A stretch of 55,123 nucleotides of DNA from Armatimonadota bacterium (GCA_016235455.1 JACRKZ010000037.1:1-55123), one strand, 5' to 3'; numbered from the stretch's first letter, positions 42,584 to 55,123 are shown. Numbers and translations are program-made. Notes: generated by a model from the sequence alone, not told the origin.

Positions 42584-42799
42584 GGTTGGTCTCTCCGTCG
42601 GCGGCGTTCGTCACGCGGCGCGGCTCTCCTGCCTCTGGCGCGGGCCAGTGCGCGCCGCTCCGGGCTGGTTCACATACGTGTTACAATATCGCCGCGGAAT
42701 GGACTTTGTAGTGTTTGGGCCGGGCTGAAAGCGATGCCAGCGCCAACGCAGAGCGCCAACAGGTCCTATAATCGGCGCGACAACTCAGGGAGAAGTGGT

Positions 42800-45700
42800 T
42801 TGCCCGGTCGAGGTAGCCAGGCGATGGTTGTGGTCAGCAGTCCGGGGCTTCGCAACGCCCTGATGGCGCTGGCCAAAGGCAGCGGGCTGATGTGCACCGC
42901 CTACGAGCAGGCCGACGAGGCGCTGGCAGCGCTCGTGGTCGGGCCGGTGCCCAGACTCTTGCTGGCCCAGGACGACCTGCCCGGCACCAGCGGCGCTCGC
43001 CTGCGCGAGTTGCTCGCCACGGCGATGCCCGGCCTGGCGGTCGTGGTCGTCGCCGAGGGCGACACCCGCGCACCGGACGTGCTGCGCTGGCCAGAGGACC
43101 AAGAGCCGTTGGCAGCCCGCCTGGCCCAGGCCGCGGCCGCCGGCGCCGCGGCGGTCCGGGCCAGCGAGATCCGCGTCCTGGTGCCCGAGCAGTGCTCGCT
43201 CAACATGCTCCTGGCGGAATCGCGCGACCTTACCGCGGCACTGCCGATCGGCCTGCTCCAGACGACGATCGACGGTCGCGTCCTGGCGGTCAACGGGGTC
43301 TGCGTGGAGATTGTGCGCTGCCCGGAGGACCAGATCGAGGCCTACTTCGGCCGTGGCATCAGGGCCATGTACGCCGACGACCGCGACCGGCAGCGCCTGG
43401 CCGACGAACTGGCCGCGCGCGGCGGCGTGCATCATTGGCCGCTGCGCCTCGTCCGGTACGACGGGACGTCTGTTTGGGTCAGCATCAACGCCCACCTGCG
43501 GCGCGGCCGGAACGGCAAGCCCGATCGCATCAACGCGTCGTTGCTGGATGTGACCGCGCAGCACGAGTCCACCATGGCGTTGGAACTCGACCTGGCCCTC
43601 GAACGCGTGCGCTCGGAAGTGCTGGCCATGCGCGACGAGACCGACTGGTGGGACGTGGTGCGTGCCTTCGAGCAGTCGATGCGCGGTCTCCTGTCCTTCC
43701 AGTGCTGTAGCGTCAACCTGCTGGACCCCGACCACGAGCAGGTGCGCCTGTTCATCTGCCCGCCCCTCGTCGTCGGCCGCTGCTTCAAGACGTCGGCCAT
43801 CCACCCCGCCTTGACGCTGGCCGCCGAGACGGGCCAGGCGCTGATTCGCAACCGTGGCGACGAACTCTTCGATGAGCGTGTGGTGCCCGAGGTCAACTGC
43901 ATCCTCGACGTGCCGTTCGACGGTGGCACAGTGGCGCTCAACAGCACCTCGTACAACGCCTTCGGGGCGCGCGAAGTGGCCATACTGGAGCGGTTCGCCA
44001 AGGTGCTGACCGCGGGCCATCGGCGCCTGAGCGACATGCAGGCCCGCGCCCGCGCCGAAGCGGAGAACCTGCGCACCAAGGAGCGCTACGAGGAGCTGGT
44101 CCGGCGCATTCCCGTCGGCGTCTACGTATACCGCGTGGCCGCCTCGGGTGAGCATGAACTGGACTACGTGAGCCCGCAACTGGCACGCATGTCCGGCGTC
44201 GACATCGATCAGATGCAGGGCGATGCCAGCCTGGCCTTCGGTATGATCCATCCCGAGGATCTGCCTGGCTTCGTGCACCACACGCTCGAATGCGCCGCCG
44301 CACTCACGCCCTTCCGCTGGGCCGGGCGAGCCATCGCCCACGGCCAGACCCGCTACATACGCGTCGAGTCCGACCCGACCGTGCTGCCCGATGGTGACAG
44401 CATCTGGTCGGGCATCGTCATCGACGTGACCGAGCAGCGCGTCGCCACCGAAGCGCTGGGCGCCAGTCTGGAGCGCATCCGCGCCCTGGTCGACGCCAAC
44501 CCTGACACCTTCTTCGTGCTGTCGACCGACGGCCTGATCCTGGACGCCAAGACCGACCGACCTGACCACCTGCTGGCTCCCCCGAGCTACTTCGTGGGCA
44601 AACACATCGGCGAGGTGCTGCCCGCCGACGTGGCCATCCTGGCCGCCGCCAAGATGGCTGAAGCGCGGCGCTCGAGTGAGCCGGTGCAGTTCGACTACGG
44701 GCTCGATTTCCCTTCTGGCCGGCACGAGTTCGAGTGCCGACTGGTCCGCCTGGGCGACGATGGGCTGATGGCGGTGATCCGCGACGTCACCCAACGGCGC
44801 CAGGCCGAGGCCGAGCGCGAGCGTCTGATGGTGGCCATCGAGCAGGCGGCCGAAACCGTCGTCATCACCGACGCCGAGGGCACCATCCAGTACGCCAACC
44901 CGATGTTCGAGCGCGTCAGCGGCTACACCCGCGAGGAGGCCATCGGGCAGACCCCTCGTCTCCTCAAGAGTGGCCAGCAGGACGATGAGACCTACCGCGT
45001 GCTATGGCACACCATCGCCAGTGGCGGCACGTGGGTGGGCCGGCTGGTCAACCGCCGCCGCGATGGCACGCTGTTCACCGAGGAAGTGACCATCTCGCCC
45101 GTGCGCAACCACGAAGGCGTGATCACCAACTACGTCGCGGTCAAGCGCGACATCAGCGCGCAACTCAGCCTCGAAGCCCAGTTGGCCCAGGCGCAGAAGA
45201 TGGAGTCCGTAGGCCGCCTGGCCGGCGGCGTGGCGCACGATTTTAACAACATGCTCGGCGTCATTCTGGGTCATGCCGAGCACGTCCTGCAGCGCATGGA
45301 CTCGGCTTCGCCGCTGCGGGCCGACCTGGACGAGATCCGCAACGCGGCGCTGCGCTCGGCCGATCTGACCCGCCAACTGCTGGCCTTTGCCCGCCAGCAG
45401 GCCATCGCCCCGCGCCTGCTCGACCTCAACCGCGCCGTGGGTGGCGTGCTGCGCATGCTGGAGCGGCTCATCGGCGAGCACATCGAGTTGCGCTGGGCGC
45501 CCGCGGACGACCTGTGGCCGGTGCGCGTCGACCCGTCGCAGATCGACCAGATCCTGGCCAACCTGTGCGTCAACGCGCGCGACGCCATCTCGGGCACAGG
45601 CCGGGTCACCATCGAGACGAGAAACCGGGTCCTCACCGACGCCCCGGCCGGCGCCGACCTGGCGCCCGGCGACTACGTCGAACTGTCGGTTGCCGACGAC

Positions 45701-46312
45701 GGCAGCGGCATGGACGAGCACACCGTGGCCCGCATCTTCGAGCCATTCTTCACCACCAAGGTAGTTGGCGAAGGCACCGGCCTCGGCCTGGCCACGGTCT
45801 ATGGCGCGGTCCGGCAGAACGACGGCGTCATCCGCGTCGAGAGCGAGCCCGGCCGCGGCACCACCTTCCGCATCTACCTGCCGCGGCACGCCGCGGAACC
45901 CGCCGCCGCGCCAGCCCCCTCCGAGGTCACCGAGTTGCCGCACGGCGAGGGTACCGTCCTGTTGGTCGAGGACGAGCCCTCCATCCTGCGCATGGCCGAG
46001 CGCATGCTCGAACTCGTCGGCTACACCGTGATCGCCGCGCCCTCACCCAGCGACGCGTTGCGTCTGGCCACCGAGCACGACGGCCCCGTCGACCTGGTCA
46101 TCACCGACGTGGTCATGCCCGAGATGAACGGCCCGCAACTCGTCGCTGAGTTGCGCGGCGCCCGGCCCGAGGTGCGGGCGCTGTTCATGTCGGGCCACAC
46201 CGCCGACACCGTGGCCAACCACGGCGTGCTCGACGGTGACGTCGAGTTCATCGCCAAGCCATTCACCACGCTCGATCTGGTCGCCGCGGTCGGGCGACTG
46301 GTCGGCAGCTAG
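42800..46312 (+). CDS. hybrid sensor histidine kinase (pseudo-REC, PAS, GAF-like, PAS x3, HisKA, HATPase, REC)
   Basis: [41 protein letters not shown]-terminal DVVMP; TTG start with GGAGA conserved in the paralog. Confidence 0.93.
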
Positions 46313-46321
46313 GAGACACCG

Positions 46322-47113
46322 ATGCCACTGCCTGACCAACCCCGCAGCGTGCTCGACTTGTTCCGCCTGGACGGGCGCCGCGCACTGGTCACCGGCGGCT
46401 CCAAGGGGCTTGGTCTGGCCATTGCCACCGCCCTGGCCGAGGCCGGGGCCGAGGTCGTGCTGGTCAGCCGCACGCTGGCCGACTGCCAGACCGCCGCCCA
46501 CTCGGTGACCGCGGCCACCGGCCAGCGCGCGTGGGGCATGGCCGCCGATGTAGGGGTGGCCGCGCAGGTCGACGCCCTCGCCGCGCAGGTGGCCGCTGAG
46601 GCCGGCGCGGTCGACATCCTGGTCAACAGTGCCGGCATCAACATCCGCCGGCCCATCGCCGAAATGACCGAGGCTGACTGGGACGCCGTGGTCGGCGTCA
46701 ATCTCAAGGCGCCGTACCTGCTGTCCCGCGCCTTTGGCCCGGCCATGGCCGCGCGCGGCTGGGGCCGCATCATCCACCTGGGCTCGATCATGTCGCAGGT
46801 CAGCATCGCCGGTCGCTCGCCCTACGCCTCGGCCAAGGCTGGGCTGCTGGGCCTGACCCGCACGCTGGCGCTCGAATGGGCCACCACCGGCGTCACCGTC
46901 AACGCGCTGTGCCCCGGCCCCTTCGCCACGGAGATGAACCTGCCGCTGCTCAACGACCCGGCGCAGTACGAAGCCTTCGTGGCCAAGATCCCCATGGGCC
47001 GCTGGGGTGAACTGCACGAGATCACCGGCGCGGCGCTGTTCCTGGCCAGCGCCGCGTCCTCGTTCGTCACGGGCAGCGCGCTGTACATCGACGGCGGGTG
47101 GACGGCGCAGTAG
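46322..47113 (+). CDS. SDR family oxidoreductase (KduD/gluconate 5-dehydrogenase-like)
   Basis: [26 protein letters not shown]. Confidence 0.92.
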
Positions 47114-47291
47114 TTGGCCGTCGCCCGGAGCCGCCGGCGCGGCGCGGCCGGCGGGGTTCAAGCGCCTGTCACATTGCCCTCGCGGCGACAGACTTTGTTG
47201 CGCTCGACCGCACAGCAGACCATCAAACTGGAGTACTTTGGTGGTCTGCGGCCGGGTCACTGCCGGAGCCGACCGCGCGGGGAGATGCGTA

Positions 47292-50200
47292 TTGCCCGGC
47301 AGCGGCAACCAGGCGATGGTCGTGGCAAGCGATGCGGATCTCCGCGAGGCGCTTTGTACCGTGGTCACGCGTCTCGGGTTCGGCGCCCGCTCCCACGACT
47401 GCGCCGACGAGGCGCTGGCCGCGCTGCTCAGTGGGCCGTCGCCCCGGTGCCTGTTGGCGCAGGCCGACCTGCCCGGCACCAGCGGCGCACGGTTGCGCGA
47501 CCTCCTGGCGACCGCCCTGCCGGAAGTTCCGGTCGCCGTCGTCACCACGCAGGGCCAGGGCCACCCAGACCAAGTGGCGTGGCCAGCCGAGGAGGCGAGG
47601 CTGGTCAAGACCATCGGCGAACTGGCCGCGCGTCGCGCCGACCGGGGCGCCACCAGCGACCTGTTGATCCTCGACCCGGATGCCGTGTTGGCGCCGAGCC
47701 TGCTGGCCGAGTCGCTCGATCTCGCGTGGGGGCTGCCCATCGGCCTGCTGCAGACGCACCCCGACGGCCGCGTGCTGGCCATGAACCGCACCTGCGCACA
47801 GATCGCGCGGTGCCCCGACGGCGCGGTCCAAGCCTGGTTCTCGCGCGGCATCCGCGCGATCTACGCCGACCCGCGCGACCGCGATCGCATGCTGGCCGAC
47901 ATCAGCGAGCACGGCGTGGTGCGCGACGTGACCGTGGCCATCCAGCGCTACGATGGCACCCAGGGTTGGGTCCGCGTCAATGCCCGCATGTACCCCGGGC
48001 GCCCAGGCGAGCCGGGGCACATCGACACCTCGCTGCTGGACGTCACGGCGGAGCATGACGCGACGGCCAACCTGGAGTCCGACCTCGCCCTCGAGCGGGT
48101 GCGGTCGGCGGTGCTCGAAATGACCGACGAGGGCGACTGGTGGCACGTGGTGCATGCCTTTGCCCAGGCGGCGCGCGGCGTGATGCACTTTGTCGAGTGT
48201 GGCGTGAACCTCGTCGACTGCGACCGGCAGGAGATGCGCGGGTTCAACTCGGGTGACCCGAACGGCGACCTGGGCTACCATCGTACCGAGATTGGCCCAG
48301 CCCTGGCGCTGGTGGTCCAGACCGGCCAGGCCATGGTGCGCGAGCGGGGCGATGCCTTGTTCGGCAACGACTTCCGAGCCGAGATCAACAGCGTGGTCGA
48401 TGTGCCCTTCTCCGGGGGCACGGTGGCCCTGAACAGCACCGAGTTCGGCGCTTTTGGCCCGCGCGAGATAGGGCTCCTGGAGCACTACGCCAAGGTCATG
48501 ACCACGGGCCATCGCCGCCTGCTCGACCTGCAGGCACGAGCCCTGGCCGAGGCCGAGACCCGGCAGTCCAAGGAGCGTTACGAGGAACTGGTCCGGCGCA
48601 TTCCCATTGGTGTCTACGTGTACCGCGTGACGGCCGCGGGCGAGCGCCTGATTGAGTACGCCAGTCCGCAACTAGCGCGCATGACGGGCCACGCCGCCGA
48701 GGACTTGCAGGGCGATGCCGCGCTGGCCTTCGGCATGATCCACCCCGACGACCTGGCCGACTTCGTCCAGCACAACATCGAGACCACCGCGGCGCTTACG
48801 CCCTTCCGCTGGGAGGGCCGCGCCGTTGTCGCCGGCGAGGTGCGGCATATCCGCATGGAGTCCGACCCCACGCCGCTGCCCAACGGCGACAGCGTGTGGT
48901 CGGGCATCGTCATCGACGTCACTGAGCAGCGTGCCGCGGCGGACGAGTTGCGCCGCAGCCAGGAACGCTACCACTCGTTTGTCGCCAACAGCCACGAAGC
49001 CATCTACTGCACCGAGTTCGACCAACCCATCGACACCGGTCTGCCCACAGAGGAGCAGATCGACGCTATCTATGCCCACGGGTACCTGGGCGAGTGCAAC
49101 GCCGCCATGGCGGCCATGTACGGCTTTGAGGCCACCGAGCAGTTTGTCGGCCAGCGGCTGGTGGACTTCCATGGCGGCAGTGACAACCCGGCCAATCGAG
49201 ACGTTTTCCGGCGGTTCATCGCCTCGAACTACCGCGCGCTTGACTCGGAGACCGAGGAGTACCTGCCCGATGGCCAGCGTCGCTACTTCCTGAGCAGCGA
49301 CGTGGGCGTGGTGAGTGACGACCGGCTGCTGCGCATCTGGGGGACGGCCAGCGACGTCACCGAACGGAGGCTGGCCGAGCAGGCGCTGCGCCGACGCGAC
49401 GAGCTGCTCGCGGCAGCGGCCCAGGCGGGCCGCATGTTGCTCACCCAGGACGACCTGCCGTCCACGTTGGCGCAGATCGTGGACCGCATCGGCCCGGCCT
49501 CCGGACAGGATCGCGCCTACCTCTTCGAGTTCCATCCCGACACCGATGCCGGCCAGGTATCAGCCTCCTTGCGGTACGAGTGGGTGCGTGACGGAGTCGA
49601 GCCCCAGATGGCCTCGCCCCAACTGCAGGACATCCCCTTCGCGGAGTTGGCGCCGTACTCCTGGTCGCGGCTCGGCCGCGGCGAGTGCGTCTGCGCCCGA
49701 GTGGCCGACCTGCCCGAGACCGAGCGTGCCGTGTTGGAGCCGCAAGGCATCCTGTCCCTCCTGCTCGTGCCCATCCAGGCGGACGGCGCGGCCTGGGGCT
49801 TCATCGGCTTCGACGCCTGCACCGCTGCCTACGACTGGCGCGCGGGCGAGCAGGCCGCACTGATGAGCATCGCCGCTGCCATTGGCGGCGCGGTGGAGCG
49901 ACTGCGTGCGGCCCAGGCCCTGCGCGAGAGCATGGAGCGCAACCGGACGCTGGTGGACGCCAACCCCGACAGCTTCTTTGTGATCTCAGCCGACGGCACC
50001 ATTCTCGACGCCAAGACCGAGCGCGCGGACAGCCTGCTCCCACCGGCGACGTACTTCGTCGGTAAGCACGTCAGCGAGGTCCTGCCCGACGATACCGCGG
50101 CGCTCACCGCAGCCAAGATGGCCGAAGTGCTCCTCGCTGACCAGCCGGTGACCTACACCTACAGCATCGAGTTCCCCTCGGGCTGGCATGACTTCGAGTG

Positions 50201-51788
50201 TCGCCTGGTGCACTGGGGCGCGGATTCGCTCATGGCGGTCATCCGTGACGTCACCGAGCGGCGCCAGGCGGAAGCCGAGCGAGAGCGGCTCATGGTGGCC
50301 ATCGAGCAGGCGGCCGAGACCGTGGTGATCACGGACGCGCAGGGCACCATTCAATACGCCAACCCGATGTTCGAACAGGTCACGGGCTATGCCCGCGCCG
50401 AGGTCATCGGCCAGAACCCGCGCATCCTCAAGAGCGACCAGCAGGACGCCGAGACCTACCGCGACCTGTGGCGCACCATCAGCCAAGGGGCGACCTGGGT
50501 CGGCCGCCTGATCAACCGGCGACGTGACGGCACGCTGTTCACCGAAGAGGCCAGCATCTCACCCGTGCGCGACCACAACGGCGTGGTCACCAACTACGTG
50601 GCGGTCAAGCGCGACATCACCTCGCAGTTGAGCCTGGAAGCGCGGTTGGCCCAGGCGCAGAAGATGGAGTCCGTGGGCCGGCTGGCTGGTGGCGTGGCCC
50701 ACGACTTCAACAACATGCTCGGGGTCATCCTAGGCCATGCCGAGACGGTGTTGGAGCAGGTCGAGGTCGACTCGCCGCTCCACGCCGATCTGGAGGAGAT
50801 ACGCAAAGCCGCGCTGCGGTCGGCCGACCTGACGCGCCAGCTTCTGGCCTTCGCTCGGCAGCAGACCATCTCGCCGCGCGTGCTCGACCTCAACCACACG
50901 GTGGGCGGCATGTTGCGCATGCTCCAGCGCCTCATCGGCGAATCCGTGGCGCTCGACTGGCAGCCAGCCGACAACCTGTGGCCAGTCTGCGTCGACCCCT
51001 CGCAGATCGACCAGATCCTGGCCAACCTGTGCGTCAACGCGCGCGACGCCATCGGCGGCAGCGGCCGCGTGACCATCACCACCAGCAACCGCACCGTGGC
51101 CGCCGACCAGGCCGACGCCGATCTGGCACAGGGCGAGTACGTCTGTCTGGCCGTCACCGACGATGGCAGCGGCATGGATCCGCACACTCAGGCGCGCATC
51201 TTCGAACCGTTCTTCACCACCAAGCAGCTGGGCGAGGGCACTGGCCTGGGACTGGCCACCGTCTATGGCGCCGTGCGCCAGAACGACGGCGTGGTTCGCG
51301 TCGACAGCTCGCCCGGCCAGGGCACCACGTTCCGCATCTTCCTGCCGCGACACCTGGGCGACGGCGCGGGCGAGTCGCAGTCCGCCCCCTCGCACCGACC
51401 ACGTCGCGGCGAGGGGACCATCCTCCTGGTCGAGGATGAGCCGGCCATTCTGCGCATGGCGCAACGCATGTTGGGCCGGCGCGGCTACACCGTCCTCGCC
51501 GCACCCACGCCCAGCGACGCGCTGCGTGTCGTGCGGGAGCACGATGGAGCCATCGATCTGGTCATGACCGACGTGGTCATGCCCGAGATGAACGGCCGCC
51601 AGCTCGTGGAAGCGATACGCCAACTGCGACCCGGCATCGGCGCGCTCTTCATGTCAGGCTACACCGCCGACGCCATCGCCGACCACGGCGTGCTCGACGC
51701 CGGCGTGGAGTTCATCGCCAAGCCGTTCACCACGCGCGACCTCGCGGCGACCGTGGAGAGGATCCTCGGTAGCCAGGAACCCGCCTGA
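47292..51788 (+). CDS. hybrid sensor histidine kinase, paralog of 42800-46312 with an extra PAS+GAF module
   Basis: Same H-box, ATPase and REC motifs; about 328 aa longer. Confidence 0.93.
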   Translation: MPGSGNQAMVVASDADLREALCTVVTRLGFGARSHDCADEALAALLSGPSPRCLLAQADLPGTSGARLRDLLATALPEVPVAVVTTQGQGHPDQVAWPAEEARLVKTIGELAARRADRGATSDLLILDPDAVLAPSLLAESLDLAWGLPIGLLQTHPDGRVLAMNRTCAQIARCPDGAVQAWFSRGIRAIYADPRDRDRMLADISEHGVVRDVTVAIQRYDGTQGWVRVNARMYPGRPGEPGHIDTSLLDVTAEHDATANLESDLALERVRSAVLEMTDEGDWWHVVHAFAQAARGVMHFVECGVNLVDCDRQEMRGFNSGDPNGDLGYHRTEIGPALALVVQTGQAMVRERGDALFGNDFRAEINSVVDVPFSGGTVALNSTEFGAFGPREIGLLEHYAKVMTTGHRRLLDLQARALAEAETRQSKERYEELVRRIPIGVYVYRVTAAGERLIEYASPQLARMTGHAAEDLQGDAALAFGMIHPDDLADFVQHNIETTAALTPFRWEGRAVVAGEVRHIRMESDPTPLPNGDSVWSGIVIDVTEQRAAADELRRSQERYHSFVANSHEAIYCTEFDQPIDTGLPTEEQIDAIYAHGYLGECNAAMAAMYGFEATEQFVGQRLVDFHGGSDNPANRDVFRRFIASNYRALDSETEEYLPDGQRRYFLSSDVGVVSDDRLLRIWGTASDVTERRLAEQALRRRDELLAAAAQAGRMLLTQDDLPSTLAQIVDRIGPASGQDRAYLFEFHPDTDAGQVSASLRYEWVRDGVEPQMASPQLQDIPFAELAPYSWSRLGRGECVCARVADLPETERAVLEPQGILSLLLVPIQADGAAWGFIGFDACTAAYDWRAGEQAALMSIAAAIGGAVERLRAAQALRESMERNRTLVDANPDSFFVISADGTILDAKTERADSLLPPATYFVGKHVSEVLPDDTAALTAAKMAEVLLADQPVTYTYSIEFPSGWHDFECRLVHWGADSLMAVIRDVTERRQAEAERERLMVAIEQAAETVVITDAQGTIQYANPMFEQVTGYARAEVIGQNPRILKSDQQDAETYRDLWRTISQGATWVGRLINRRRDGTLFTEEASISPVRDHNGVVTNYVAVKRDITSQLSLEARLAQAQKMESVGRLAGGVAHDFNNMLGVILGHAETVLEQVEVDSPLHADLEEIRKAALRSADLTRQLLAFARQQTISPRVLDLNHTVGGMLRMLQRLIGESVALDWQPADNLWPVCVDPSQIDQILANLCVNARDAIGGSGRVTITTSNRTVAADQADADLAQGEYVCLAVTDDGSGMDPHTQARIFEPFFTTKQLGEGTGLGLATVYGAVRQNDGVVRVDSSPGQGTTFRIFLPRHLGDGAGESQSAPSHRPRRGEGTILLVEDEPAILRMAQRMLGRRGYTVLAAPTPSDALRVVREHDGAIDLVMTDVVMPEMNGRQLVEAIRQLRPGIGALFMSGYTADAIADHGVLDAGVEFIAKPFTTRDLAATVERILGSQEPA

Positions 51789-51818: not shown

Positions 51819-53153
51819 CTAGCAGGGCCGCGGCGCCGATCCGGTCCCCAGCGGCCGGTCCGCCAGCCGCCAGAACACCTCACGCACCGCCTCCTTCATG
51901 CCCGCGCAGGCCACTCCCGGCCGGCCGAACTCGCCGTGCACCGCGTAGCTCTCGCCCGCGCACCCGCCCAGACACCAGTGCCGCGCCCAGCAGCCGCCGC
52001 ACGGCCGGCGCGCGGCCAGCGCCGTTTGCCGCCGGACTTCGGCCAGCGCCGCCGAGCGCCGCCAGACCCGCGCCGGCGGCTCGCTGCGCACGTTGCCCGC
52101 GGCGAAGGCCTCACCCACGAAATTGGGGCAGGGATAGAGCGTGCCGTCGGCATCGAGCAGCAGCGTCTGGCTGCCGGTGCCGCAACTGCGGCGCGGCGCG
52201 CAGCCGTGGCAGGTCTGGGCGAAGATGCTCGCAAAGTCGCGGCCGAGCAACCCCGCCAGCGCCGGGTCGCTGTCCGCCGCCTGCCAGATGGCGCGCAGCA
52301 GGTTGACCGGCTTCGGCGGCTCGAAGGCCTGGCCCGGCCCCATCTGGCGTACGGCGATGCAGCGCGCCTCGGCCACGCCGAGGCGTTGCGCCAGCCGCAG
52401 ATACGGCTCGATGGCGGTCAGGTTGCCCGCGTGGACGACCATGCTGATGACCACCAGCGCGCCGGCCTCGACCAGCCGCGCCACGCCGGCCAAGGCGCGG
52501 TCGAAGGTGCCCGGTCCGCGCACCGCCTCATGGCCGGCGGCGTCGGGTCCGTCGAGCGACACCTGCACGTCCAGCCCGCACTCGGCGGCGCCGCGGGCAA
52601 AGGCGTCGTCCACGTACAGCCCGTTGGTGGAGACCATGGGTCGCAGCCCGCGCCGCCTGGCCCAGCGCGCCAGGTCGAGCGTATCCGCCGGCCGCAACAG
52701 CGGCTCGCCGCCGAGGATGGCCAGCAGCGCGCCCGGCGCGGTGTAGCGGCGCAGGCCGTCGAGCGCGGCGGCCAGCTCCAGGCCGGACAGCTCGGCGCGA
52801 TCCTGGTGCAGCTCAGGCTGGTTGTAGCAGAAGGCGCAGCGCAGCGGGCAGCGGTTGGTGATGTTGACCGCGATGCTCTCGATGCGGTCGCGCGCGGGCT
52901 GTCGCGGCCGGCGCGCGAGCACGCCGGCGCTCTTGAGCCGCCGGATGATGCCGGCCGCCGCCTGCGCCACGGCATAGTCGGCGCGCCCGCCGGTCAGCTC
53001 GGCCAGCGCGGCTGCCGGCGACTTGCCCTCGACCAGCGCGCCGATGAAGCGGTCGGCCTGTGGGTCGATGACCGTCCACCAGGGCGCATCGCCCCACACC
53101 AGCAGGACGCGGTCGCCGCGGCGCTCGCGGATGTCGGGCGGCGGGAGGGTCAT
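51819..53153 (-). CDS. radical SAM/SPASM domain protein with RRE/PqqD-like N-terminus
   Basis: CPLRCAFC, GGEPLL, STNG, VSLDG; SPASM cysteines CGTG...YPC...CGGC...CLGGC...C; ATGA overlap with the upstream gene. Confidence 0.92.
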   Translation of the reverse strand: MTLPPPDIRERRGDRVLLVWGDAPWWTVIDPQADRFIGALVEGKSPAAALAELTGGRADYAVAQAAAGIIRRLKSAGVLARRPRQPARDRIESIAVNITNRCPLRCAFCYNQPELHQDRAELSGLELAAALDGLRRYTAPGALLAILGGEPLLRPADTLDLARWARRRGLRPMVSTNGLYVDDAFARGAAECGLDVQVSLDGPDAAGHEAVRGPGTFDRALAGVARLVEAGALVVISMVVHAGNLTAIEPYLRLAQRLGVAEARCIAVRQMGPGQAFEPPKPVNLLRAIWQAADSDPALAGLLGRDFASIFAQTCHGCAPRRSCGTGSQTLLLDADGTLYPCPNFVGEAFAAGNVRSEPPARVWRRSAALAEVRRQTALAARRPCGGCWARHWCLGGCAGESYAVHGEFGRPGVACAGMKEAVREVFWRLADRPLGTGSAPRPC

Positions 53154-53449
53154 GGTCGCCCAAACAAGCTGCCGTACACCGACACACGCTGTAAGGCTAT
53201 GCCGGCGACCGCGAGTGTGGCCACCGTTACCACCGCCAGCGGTATCCGCCAACGCCGATTGGCCAGCAGTGTGGCGGTCACCAACGCCAGCCCCGTGACC
53301 AGCAGGCCGAGCCCCAACTGCGGCGTGCTCCAGACTGACGCAGACCATTGCTCGACCGCGACGACATAGCCCATGTGCGCCGACGCGCTGCGACTGCTGT
53401 CCCCCGCCGCCAGCACCCGCGGGGCCGTGGCGTCGGTCCTCGACGTCAT
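53150..53449 (-). CDS. small 2-TM membrane protein with N-terminal PRVLAAG-x8-HMGY motif
   Basis: 99 aa, two hydrophobic helices, ATGA overlaps at both ends. Confidence 0.75.
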   Translation of the reverse strand: MTSRTDATAPRVLAAGDSSRSASAHMGYVVAVEQWSASVWSTPQLGLGLLVTGLALVTATLLANRRWRIPLAVVTVATLAVAGIALQRVSVYGSLFGRP

Positions 53450-54162
53450 CGCACGACCTTCCCCATCCCCGTTGGCCAGCCCGGCAGCTTGGCCTTCGGG
53501 TCGCGCGGCGGCCGCGCATGGGGCCAGACCTTCTCTTGCAGGTAACTCGCCCGCAGCCAGTGCACCACCTCCTCGTCGTCGGGCGTGCCGAACAGCCCAT
53601 CGGCGCCCGCGACGCGGCTGTCGCACCACAGGTAGTCCGGCGCGAGTCCACGGTCGTCAGCCCAGATGGCGTAGGCCTTCCACGGCGCGCTCAGGTCGCC
53701 GTGGTCGCGCGTGTTGGGTGGCGGCGCCAGTTCGAAGTGGACCGCCTTGCCGCGCGGCCCGACCGGCTCGCCATGCTCCGCATGCCACTCCTCGGGCGTC
53801 GGCCAACGGCCCAGCGCCGACGCCTGCGCCTCAGTCGATGCGGACAACCGCTCAATCTGCTGGAGCGCGGTGATGGTCTCGGGCAGGAGCACGCGCTTGC
53901 GCGCACGACCCACGTCCATGCCCGCCACCAGCGCGACCGACGCAGCCACGAGCACGCCGCAGCGCGCCGCCGGACGCCATCGCTCGCGCGCCGCAACGGC
54001 GAGCAGGAGCAGCGCCAAGCCCACGCCGCACAGCCCCGCGGTGAGGCCCGGCCTGGCCGGCACGAGAGTCATCTCGATCGTGCCACCAACCACGTAGCCG
54101 ACGTGGGAGTAGACCTGGCCGGTCCGCGAGCCTTCGGCCAGCAGATGCGGCGTGCCCGTCAT
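53446..54162 (-). CDS. membrane protein with PHLLAEG-x8-HVGY motif and GspG-like domain
   Basis: GAGGTG RBS; two TM helices; LSASTEAQ...GRWPT; GADGLFGTPDD; WPHARPPRDP tail. Confidence 0.8.
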   Translation of the reverse strand: MTGTPHLLAEGSRTGQVYSHVGYVVGGTIEMTLVPARPGLTAGLCGVGLALLLLAVAARERWRPAARCGVLVAASVALVAGMDVGRARKRVLLPETITALQQIERLSASTEAQASALGRWPTPEEWHAEHGEPVGPRGKAVHFELAPPPNTRDHGDLSAPWKAYAIWADDRGLAPDYLWCDSRVAGADGLFGTPDDEEVVHWLRASYLQEKVWPHARPPRDPKAKLPGWPTGMGKVVR

Positions 54163-55058
54163 GGCTTCACCTCGTTCGGCGCCGCGGGCCAGGGCGGGAG
54201 CTTGACGTTCGGGTCGCGTGGCGCGCGGGCGTGGGGCCATTCCGCCCGGCCGAAGCGGCTGGGCGGCAGCTTATACTGGAGCGGATCGTCGCCCGTAGCG
54301 AACAGCCCGTCAGCGCCGAACTCCTCGCTCAGGAAGCGGCGGTTGTTGGCCGGAGGACCCGGAGGCTGGCAGACGACGGTGTACCGCCGCCAGTTCGGCG
54401 CCACGACATAGTACGGATCCGGCAGGCGGGTCGCCGGGCCGTATTCGAACCGGCTACCGTCCACACCCACCGGCCGACCATGCTCGGTCTGCCATTCGGC
54501 GGGGGTCGGCCAGTGGCCCAGCCGTGCGGCCTGCGCCTCGGTCGAGGCCGACAACTGCTCCAGTTGCAGCAGGTCGCTGAGCACCACCGGCTTGAGGCTG
54601 CGCAGCGCGGGCGCGGTGAGGGCCGCGCCCAGGACGATCACCCCCGCGGCGCCGACGGCCACGCGCCCGACCCGATCAGGTTGACTCTGCGCCAACGAGG
54701 CCAGCACGCACAGCAACACGCCCCACAGCACCGGGTGCATGGTCCAGTGGACACGGAGGTCGAGCAGACCCTCGTTTGCAAATGGCCTGAGCGGCACTTG
54801 CAGCGCCACCACGGCCAGCCCGGCGACCAGGGCCAACGCGAACCGCCCTACCAGTTCGCGCAGCCGCGGCGCATGGCGACTGCCCCAGGCGAGCAGCATC
54901 AGAGCCAGCAACACCGAGCCCTCGACCGTGTGTGGCGCCACCCGCCGGTAGTCGCTGACATCGGCGGTGAACTGGATGACCGAGTAGCCGACGTGCGTGT
55001 AGGTCCTGGCCTGCGACTCGCCCGCGGCCAGCAGCCTGGGTGCTGTAGTCGGTGTCAT
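54159..55058 (-). CDS. membrane protein with PRLLAAG-x8-HVGY motif and GspG-like domain
   Basis: About four TM helices; LSASTEAQ...GHWPT; GADGLFATGDD; WPHARAPRDP tail. Confidence 0.8.
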   Translation of the reverse strand: MTPTTAPRLLAAGESQARTYTHVGYSVIQFTADVSDYRRVAPHTVEGSVLLALMLLAWGSRHAPRLRELVGRFALALVAGLAVVALQVPLRPFANEGLLDLRVHWTMHPVLWGVLLCVLASLAQSQPDRVGRVAVGAAGVIVLGAALTAPALRSLKPVVLSDLLQLEQLSASTEAQAARLGHWPTPAEWQTEHGRPVGVDGSRFEYGPATRLPDPYYVVAPNWRRYTVVCQPPGPPANNRRFLSEEFGADGLFATGDDPLQYKLPPSRFGRAEWPHARAPRDPNVKLPPWPAAPNEVKP

Positions 55059-55123
55059 GGCACGTCCCCCTTCGCAGTCGGCCAGGGCGGCAGCTTGACG
55101 TTCGGGTCGCGCGGCGCGCGGCC
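55055..55123 (-). CDS. 3' end of a further paralog of the array (truncated by the window edge)
   Basis: Translates to GRAPRDPNVKLPPWPTAKGDVP*, near-identical to the tail of 54159-55058; ATGA overlap. Confidence 0.8.
   Translation of the reverse strand, partial: GRAPRDPNVKLPPWPTAKGDVP

Follow-up and report, generated by a model that had tools for sequence, protein, structure and literature searches.

A putative RiPP-style maturation system pairing a radical SAM/SPASM enzyme with tagged membrane proteins in an Armatimonadota bacterium

The window analysed here is an entire contig of 55,123 nucleotides from an Armatimonadota bacterium (GCA_016235455.1), and its 3′ end holds four translationally coupled genes on the minus strand, which encode three membrane proteins, paralogs A, B and C, and a radical SAM enzyme, with start and stop codons overlapping between neighbouring genes (Table 1). 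The end of the window has 141 identical bases in common with a second contig, C53, onto which the cassette extends with paralogs E and F and, upstream of them, a CPBP protease. The full cassette comprises the CPBP intramembrane protease, all five membrane-protein paralogs and the RRE-radical SAM/SPASM enzyme. Paralogs B, C, E and F share 33-43% protein identity with A. At the 3′ end of the genes for E, F, A and B, whose proteins are 33-43% alike, lies a stretch of 46 bases that is nearly identical at the DNA level (46, 46, 43 and 37 of the 46 positions, respectively, agree with the E copy), and the contig break adjoins one of its copies; the stretch may be a trace of gene conversion or a junction used in tandem expansion. 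A gene for a 713-aa DUF2961 protein (C53, L001 4481-2340) lies about 40 bases ahead of the protease gene on the same strand, and no recurrence of it beside other cassettes was noticed. Within the window, two similar PAS/GAF hybrid histidine kinase genes stand in tandem on the plus strand (42734-46312 and 47007-51788) on either side of a short-chain dehydrogenase gene (46322-47113), and the second kinase gene is convergent with the enzyme gene.

Table 1. Features of the cassette in the window and on contig C53 (locus L001)
Feature	Position	Strand	Basis or detail
3′ end of paralog F (F = 305 aa)	window 55055..55123	-	141-base exact overlap and translation
Rest of paralog F	L001 (contig C53) 990-73	-	translation
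Paralog E, 237 aa	L001 (contig C53) 1700-987	-	translation
CPBP protease, 213 aa	L001 (contig C53) 2301-1660	-	Pfam PF02517, E 8.7e-18
Paralog A, 299 aa	window 54159..55058	-	tag at the N-terminus; 3-4 membrane helices; C-terminal GspG-like domain
Tag of A, Pro to Tyr	window 54984..55040	-	His at 54995
Paralog B, 238 aa	window 53446..54162	-	tag, 2 membrane helices, GspG-like domain
Tag of B	window 54094..54150	-	residues 5-11 predicted RRE-docking strand, 18-23 predicted core
Paralog C, 99 aa	window 53150..53449	-	tag and 2 membrane helices only
Tag of C	window 53366..53422	-	His at 53377
Radical SAM/SPASM enzyme, 444 aa	window 51819..53153	-	CxxxCxxC at 102/106/109; SPASM Cys 315, 324, 342, 385, 388, 394, 398, 416
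RRE-like N-terminal domain of enzyme, residues 8-75	window 52929..53132	-	three strands, then three helices (AF2 model)
46-base near-identical stretch	window ~54187-54232, 53474-53519, 55080-55123; L001 ~1015-1060

The enzyme contains a radical SAM core with the CxxxCxxC motif (PF04055, 66.6 bits against a cut-off of 29.5) and a SPASM domain with Cys for two auxiliary clusters (PF13186, 31.6 bits against 21.5). A search at E ≤ 1e-60 returned 45 homologs, 41 of which were aligned, the others being two fragments, a shorter sequence and a sequence that carries a long insertion; the core Cys are present in 41/41 of the aligned sequences and the eight SPASM Cys in 38-41/41. The RRE-like N-terminal domain is predicted as three strands followed by three helices (AF2, pLDDT 92), and the best fold matches of the enzyme are CteB and SuiB (Foldseek E 2.5e-17 and 5.3e-14, at 14-18% identity). 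Among the best 25 of the 82 NCBIfam families, no cut-off of a named maturase is reached, the top scores being those of StsB (121 of 625 bits) and mycofactocin MftC (119 of 265 bits). A quick, midpoint-rooted tree of 79 enzyme sequences, the careful search for which is unfinished, falls into three main groups, and each of them has a leader style of its own, so that leader types track the tree; two of the groups, the window's among them, mostly have CPBP and one is without it.

Paralogs A, B and C all start with the motif P-x-[LV]-L-A-x-G-x8-H-x-G-Y. As had been noticed from the window, P, L-A, G and H-x-G-Y are identical in the three copies while eight variable residues separate G from H, Tyr stands two residues before His in A and B (C has Ser there), and, besides the motif, C contains just two hydrophobic segments (residues 45-63 and 69-87). 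Over all five copies this invariance holds in part: A, G, H, G and Y are kept in 5/5, P and the L of L-A in 4/5 each, and the Tyr at −2 in 2/5, the upstream aromatic being absent from the other three. When the genome is read in six frames, giving 13.0 million residues, the pattern A-x-G-x8-H-x-G-Y has 11 matches: six belong to the cassette (five genes, A appearing twice because the contigs overlap) and the other five lie elsewhere. Since matches are this few and concentrated in the cassette, and since the H, G and Y codons differ synonymously among the five copies, the motif in the window is not due to chance.

The motif extends to wider homologs. A profile of the five local paralogs recovered 67 representatives, 55 of which, together with three other sequences, make up the alignment A5 (n = 58); of the 12 left out, eight are proteins whose match is confined to a short G-x-D-G-x-x-G-T-x-D-D stretch, three are fragments or short pieces, and one is paralog C. 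In A5 the H, G and Y of the core are conserved in 58/58 and Y or F occupies the position two before His in 52/58, so that H and Y, whose loss among distant homologs would have told against a modified core, are kept, and the motif stands as the conserved unit of the family. A non-circular check agrees with this: among 14 hits of 165-273 aa, 13 carry the motif though their best matching stretch excludes it, and the 14th starts without that region. The proposal that Pro and Leu form the docking code fared less well and was dropped, since the Pro column is Met or Val, as a start codon, in 46/58 and Pro in 9/58, and the supposedly invariant Leu column is Glu in 44/58. What homologs keep instead is a hydrophobic residue one place before the Leu column (58/58) and the Gly (57/58). 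Judged from the alignment, the P-x-L leader is a local feature, in which Pro occupies the position of the start Met of most homologs.

From 17 genomes and 80 metagenome loci we gathered 100 distinct tags that lie next to the enzyme, and counted 97 full windows. These were selected by pattern, so the counts are partly circular: His is present in 95/97 (Tyr replaces it in the other two), Tyr in 97/97, G or A between them in 97/97, Y or F at −2 in 92/97, S or A after the core Tyr in 86/97 and A at the next position in 84/97. The 97 pattern-selected windows give the consensus M-[KRQ]-[ILV]-x-[AHYS]-x-[SG]-x(6-9)-[YF]-x-H-[LV]-[GA]-Y-x-[SA]-A, which for the family condenses to M-x-I-x-x-x-[GS]-x(6-9)-[YF]-x-H-x-[GA]-Y-x-[SA]-A with a membrane helix and variable cargo behind it, and the His lies 16-17 residues from the start codon in 86 of the 100 tags. 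The five-copy profile A3 found no matches in five genomes of the same family, though one of them (G002) encodes two tag proteins; the local copies are therefore divergent. A scan of genome contigs with a single protein gave only two distant radical SAM loci at 27% identity, which were left out. A prepilin-type cleavage site between the G and Y, considered from sequence likeness, was rejected: there is no conserved Glu at +5, and no hydrophobic helix starts there.

The tag and the enzyme occur together. In a phylum survey of 401 genomes, 17 encode the enzyme subfamily and 19 the motif, every one of the 17 being among the 19; as these 17 genomes supplied the loci for the tag profile, the independent part of the result is its absence from 382 of the other 384, among which kin are not independent. 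One of the two extra genomes (G372) has a broken enzyme gene fused to the tag, in which an in-frame stop and a deletion-like junction leading from the middle of the enzyme straight into the tag are seen (L136/L149; G372:C55, ~93705-94190). In the other (G193) the tag lies 57 bases from a contig start, and an enzyme of the subfamily is absent from the assembly. Across enzyme clusters at 90% identity, a count that excludes the window's own cassette, split as it is over two contigs, the tag adjoins 62 of 81 and 36 of the 42 that are well flanked, and an opposite-strand decoy hits 1. There are up to five tagged paralogs with different cargos per enzyme. No motif was found nearby in six of the 42 well-flanked clusters (L052, L054, L057, L069, L076 and L077). 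The fetched flanks of L052, L057, L062, L069, L076 and L077 contain neither a tag protein nor a protease, and in the tree most of these loci fall into a single long-branched group. In the flanks read by eye, we noticed no further gene that recurs as a neighbour. At 1e-10, 7 of 109 flanking ORFs from 21 loci match PADLOC, under a length and composition filter of our own; the matches are mostly to generic domains of kinase, AAA, phosphorylase or helicase-like type, and for the enzyme itself the only match is viperin, through its core. These mostly generic matches lend no support to a defence-island, HXS-like role.

His and Tyr are able to ligate metals, and H-x-G-Y could be a native metal-binding or ordinary structural element that undergoes no covalent modification, the enzyme being an incidental neighbour. 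We regard this reading, already disfavoured, as very improbable. The near-exclusive co-occurrence with one enzyme subfamily argues against it, as does the stand-alone model of paralog B, in which residues 1-26 are of low confidence (residues 7-9, 11-13 and 15-26 have pLDDT < 50) and the rest is well folded; the tag is no strand of the protein's own fold, as the earlier note had warned it might be. Furthermore, none of the 85 tag segments has a family in NCBIfam, and neither Pfam nor NCBIfam holds one above cut-off for the five local proteins or for 14 homologs.

Structure prediction of the peptide with the enzyme, which had been suggested as a check, places the N-terminal part of the motif on the RRE. 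Over three runs, the complex of B residues 1-36 with the enzyme scores 0.82, whereas the best of three controls scores 0.07. The complex passes a mark that 116 of 157 solved complexes attain, as do 2 of 215 mismatched pairs, although RRE-leader complexes have already been solved and likeness to those may contribute to the pass. At least 42% of contacts agree among the runs, and the pLDDT of the partner is 51-52. In the model, B residues 5-11 run along enzyme strand 25-30, the edge of the RRE; H20-Y23 lie outside the confident contacts, so the model is silent on the core. Together with the conservation of H, G and Y, the co-occurrence with the enzyme and the disorder of the free tag, this prediction leaves the leader/core logic supported. 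That the leader strand alone is confidently docked, and that six of the 42 well-flanked clusters have no tag protein nearby, would also suit a tag that serves as a membrane tether or accessory partner and recruits the enzyme to some other target, be it a lipid, a cofactor or another protein. Such a tether seems to us quite improbable, as the most invariant residues, H and Y, lie outside the docking strand, past a variable spacer and at a fixed distance, one enzyme can have up to five tagged paralogs of differing cargo, and no other recurrent gene was noticed in the neighbourhoods read.

A membrane helix follows the tag in 91/98 proteins, at a median of 14 residues past the Tyr, and Lys and Arg are more numerous after the helix than before it in 80/91. 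Hydropathy and charge counts of this kind suggest an N-out topology; paralogs A and E have an odd helix count at the threshold applied. In 45 of the 58 A5 members a second conserved His motif, H-[GA]-R, occurs in the C-terminal 60 residues (window ~54200-54245 in A), and it is predicted on the same membrane side as the tag. Beyond the helices the proteins diverge. A cargo scan of 53 tagged proteins found PF08334 (GspG) in 14 at E ≤ 0.01, five of them above cut-off, TPR in 2 and DUF1559 in 1. For the local copies the GspG likeness comes from the A5 profile, which aligns with one GspG-positive homolog over 41 columns (probability 96.5); they have no Pfam match to PF08334, and GspG is absent from the fold-search matches listed. 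With A5 as the query, solved structures had no sequence match below E 0.06, Foldseek with the cargo-bearing protein gave no match at E ≤ 0.001, the VIA fold search, with the cargo domain within the whole protein, was filled by generic helical hairpins, and the ESM Atlas provided leads only (0.81-0.85, some of them T2SSG). At L054 (2-1771) and L061 (2-199), the gene upstream in CPBP-enzyme cassettes encodes a large secreted-looking protein whose start is off the contig, and these proteins may represent much larger cargo.

The protease is an optional part of the cassette, CPBP being present in 30 of the 81 enzyme clusters and 16 of the 42 well-flanked ones. The local protein matches PF02517 with 64.8 bits (cut-off 22.4) and has the EExxxR, FxxxH and HxxxN motifs (P0007). 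Where enzyme and protease lie on one stretch, an intact CPBP with all three motifs is found within 100 bases upstream of the enzyme in 32/33 loci; at L106 (3881-6177), three tandem CPBP genes precede the enzyme and only one tag protein was noticed on the contig. The cassette protease resembles the CPBP sorting proteases MrtJ, MrtS and myxosortase MrtC in being a CPBP protein, and its best NCBIfam match is MrtJ at 51.5 bits, but none of their cut-offs (75, 130 and 195 bits) is reached. The MrtJ, MrtS and MrtC systems act on C-terminal sorting tags, whereas the tag described here is N-terminal and tied to a radical SAM enzyme.

The close placement of protease and enzyme bears on whether the product is kept or let go. 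In a classical modify-and-release RiPP, the membrane part would be only a follower or export handle, and CPBP or a host protease would free a small cyclic peptide around (Y)xHxGYx(S/A)A that acts as a signal or antimicrobial, with CPBP perhaps also giving immunity. Besides the 32/33 spacing, the cargo-free members, many tag proteins being only 70-115 aa long, and the small residues kept past the core Tyr are as such a system would have them. We nevertheless consider release rather unlikely: CPBP is missing from most clusters, and the whole clade without it keeps S/A-A, whereas the window lineage keeps CPBP yet has V-x in place of S/A-A. Moreover, a conserved, well-folded cargo domain is present in most members, and the core is nearly the same among paralogs while their cargos diverge.

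We lean instead, if only slightly, toward a RiPP-style maturation system with a membrane-protein precursor, the product of which stays anchored and is displayed on the surface, and in which the enzyme most likely modifies the His/Tyr core. As to the chemistry, a thioether was considered and rejected, the tag having no conserved Cys: Cys occurs in 4/97 windows and at no conserved place, so the donor Cys of sactipeptide and ranthipeptide precursor cores is absent, and the corresponding maturase cut-offs are not reached by the enzyme (PapB 87 of 340 bits and SCIFF 69 of 425 bits, besides StsB). The combination of eight SPASM Cys with a Cys-free substrate would therefore point away from thioether chemistry; the auxiliary clusters are described as fully ligated in anSME, SuiB and PqqE and as having an open site in CteB (PMC6231123). 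CteB (PDB 5WGG/5WHY) and SuiB/StrB (5V1T) are alike to our enzyme in their three-part fold and in the predicted leader-on-RRE binding mode, which is described for CteB in the same source (PMC6231123). Their substrates are short soluble peptides, with Cys in CteA and Lys/Trp in that of StrB (PMC11851443), and they differ in this from the Cys-free His/Tyr core on a membrane protein found here.

In dynobactin, the DynA link joins His to Tyr, and spliceotide substrates have a Tyr-Gly motif. The order here is Gly-Tyr, and Gly follows Tyr in 7/97 windows, so the spliceotide motif is not found. The triceptide pattern Aromatic-x-X3 could be read as Y/F-x-H in 92/97 windows and in 2/5 local copies; a triceptide running from His1 to the C-beta of X3 is impossible where X3 is Gly, which has no C-beta, as in the H-x-G of 83/97 windows. 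HaaB, HtkB, YhhB and DynA resemble the present case in that these radical SAM enzymes cross-link through His within three- to five-residue motifs, although the cut-offs of YhhB (54.3 of 445 bits) and DynA (69.9 of 450 bits) are not reached, YhhB being among the best 25 of the 82 families. Cross-links through His made by radical SAM enzymes have precedent (PMC11499958, PMC10206099, PMC11851443), among them those of the cyclophane synthases HaaB, HtkB and YhhB (PMC11499958) and of DynA of dynobactin (PMC10206099).

The likeliest product of the core modification, which we put forward tentatively, would be a side-chain cross-link between His and Tyr(i+3) with the loss of two hydrogens, favoured because H and Y are the only fixed reactive residues and because three of the five local copies have lost the upstream aromatic. 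The next candidate would be a Y/F-x-H cyclophane, or both links, the cyclophane being inapplicable to those three copies.

In the anchored system that we prefer, each paralog begins, as sequence and co-occurrence show, with a portable tag of 20-30 residues composed of a short leader strand (hydrophobic-x-x-x-G/S), a variable spacer and the core (Y/F)-x-H-x-(G/A)-Y, behind which lie a membrane helix and then exchangeable cargo, which may be none, GspG-like, TPR or DUF1559. The leader strand is predicted to be bound by the RRE of the enzyme through beta-sheet extension, and the core would then be modified by the radical SAM centre in the cytoplasm, ahead of export of the N-terminal tail; the timing that a cytoplasmic enzyme requires on a tail bound for export is assumed. 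The protein would insert with its N-terminus out, presenting the modified head on the cell surface. As the weakest step, CPBP, where present, might trim the leader or clip the head, one large enzyme clade managing without it. A further step, which we think unlikely, would make the tag a portable "radical tag", that is, a His-Tyr cross-linked metal or redox site at the tip of any membrane protein that bears it, of a type otherwise seen in self-assembling centres such as that of cytochrome c oxidase. CPBP would in that case remove the leader and expose the site, and the surface would be decorated with cofactor-bearing proteins whose cargos (pseudopilin-like, TPR or none) are swapped freely.

Among described systems, HXS (HxsA-D) is, as an analogy, the closest working analogue, in that cytoplasmic radical SAM enzymes mature a short His motif on an N-terminally processed protein outside the inner membrane (PMC13128918). 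HXS is described as an anti-phage system with two radical SAM enzymes, a separate HxsD, a repeated His-Xaa-Ser with a change of +8 Da, and a peptidoglycan-binding periplasmic effector (PMC13128918). The cassettes considered here differ from it in having one RRE-fused enzyme each, a single N-terminal H-x-G/A-Y, integral membrane substrates and an optional CPBP; the two radical SAM enzymes with HxsD and the His-Xaa-Ser repeats that define HXS are not found in them.

We found no published description of this tag-enzyme system in a literature search that covered subscription journals thinly, and the family could be listed in large RiPP-mining tables; in a review of RiPP proteases the terms CPBP, CAAX and Abi do not occur (PMC10885120). 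The system would represent RiPP-type radical SAM maturation with membrane-protein substrates, in which neither the enzyme subfamily nor the substrates are named by a Pfam or NCBIfam family, and an unnamed radical SAM subfamily and its likely substrate motif are here defined together. It is spread over several poorly cultured phyla, with source names that include Armatimonadota, Acidobacteriota and Ca. Riflebacteria. Precursor finders, which seek short soluble ORFs, would overlook membrane-protein substrates of 70-370 residues. If true, a His-Tyr(i+3) link would extend the His-containing RiPP cross-links, described as rare (PMC10206099), and, with a surface-displayed product, the envelope proteins matured by radical SAM enzymes, a small set of which HXS is a recent example, would gain a further member.
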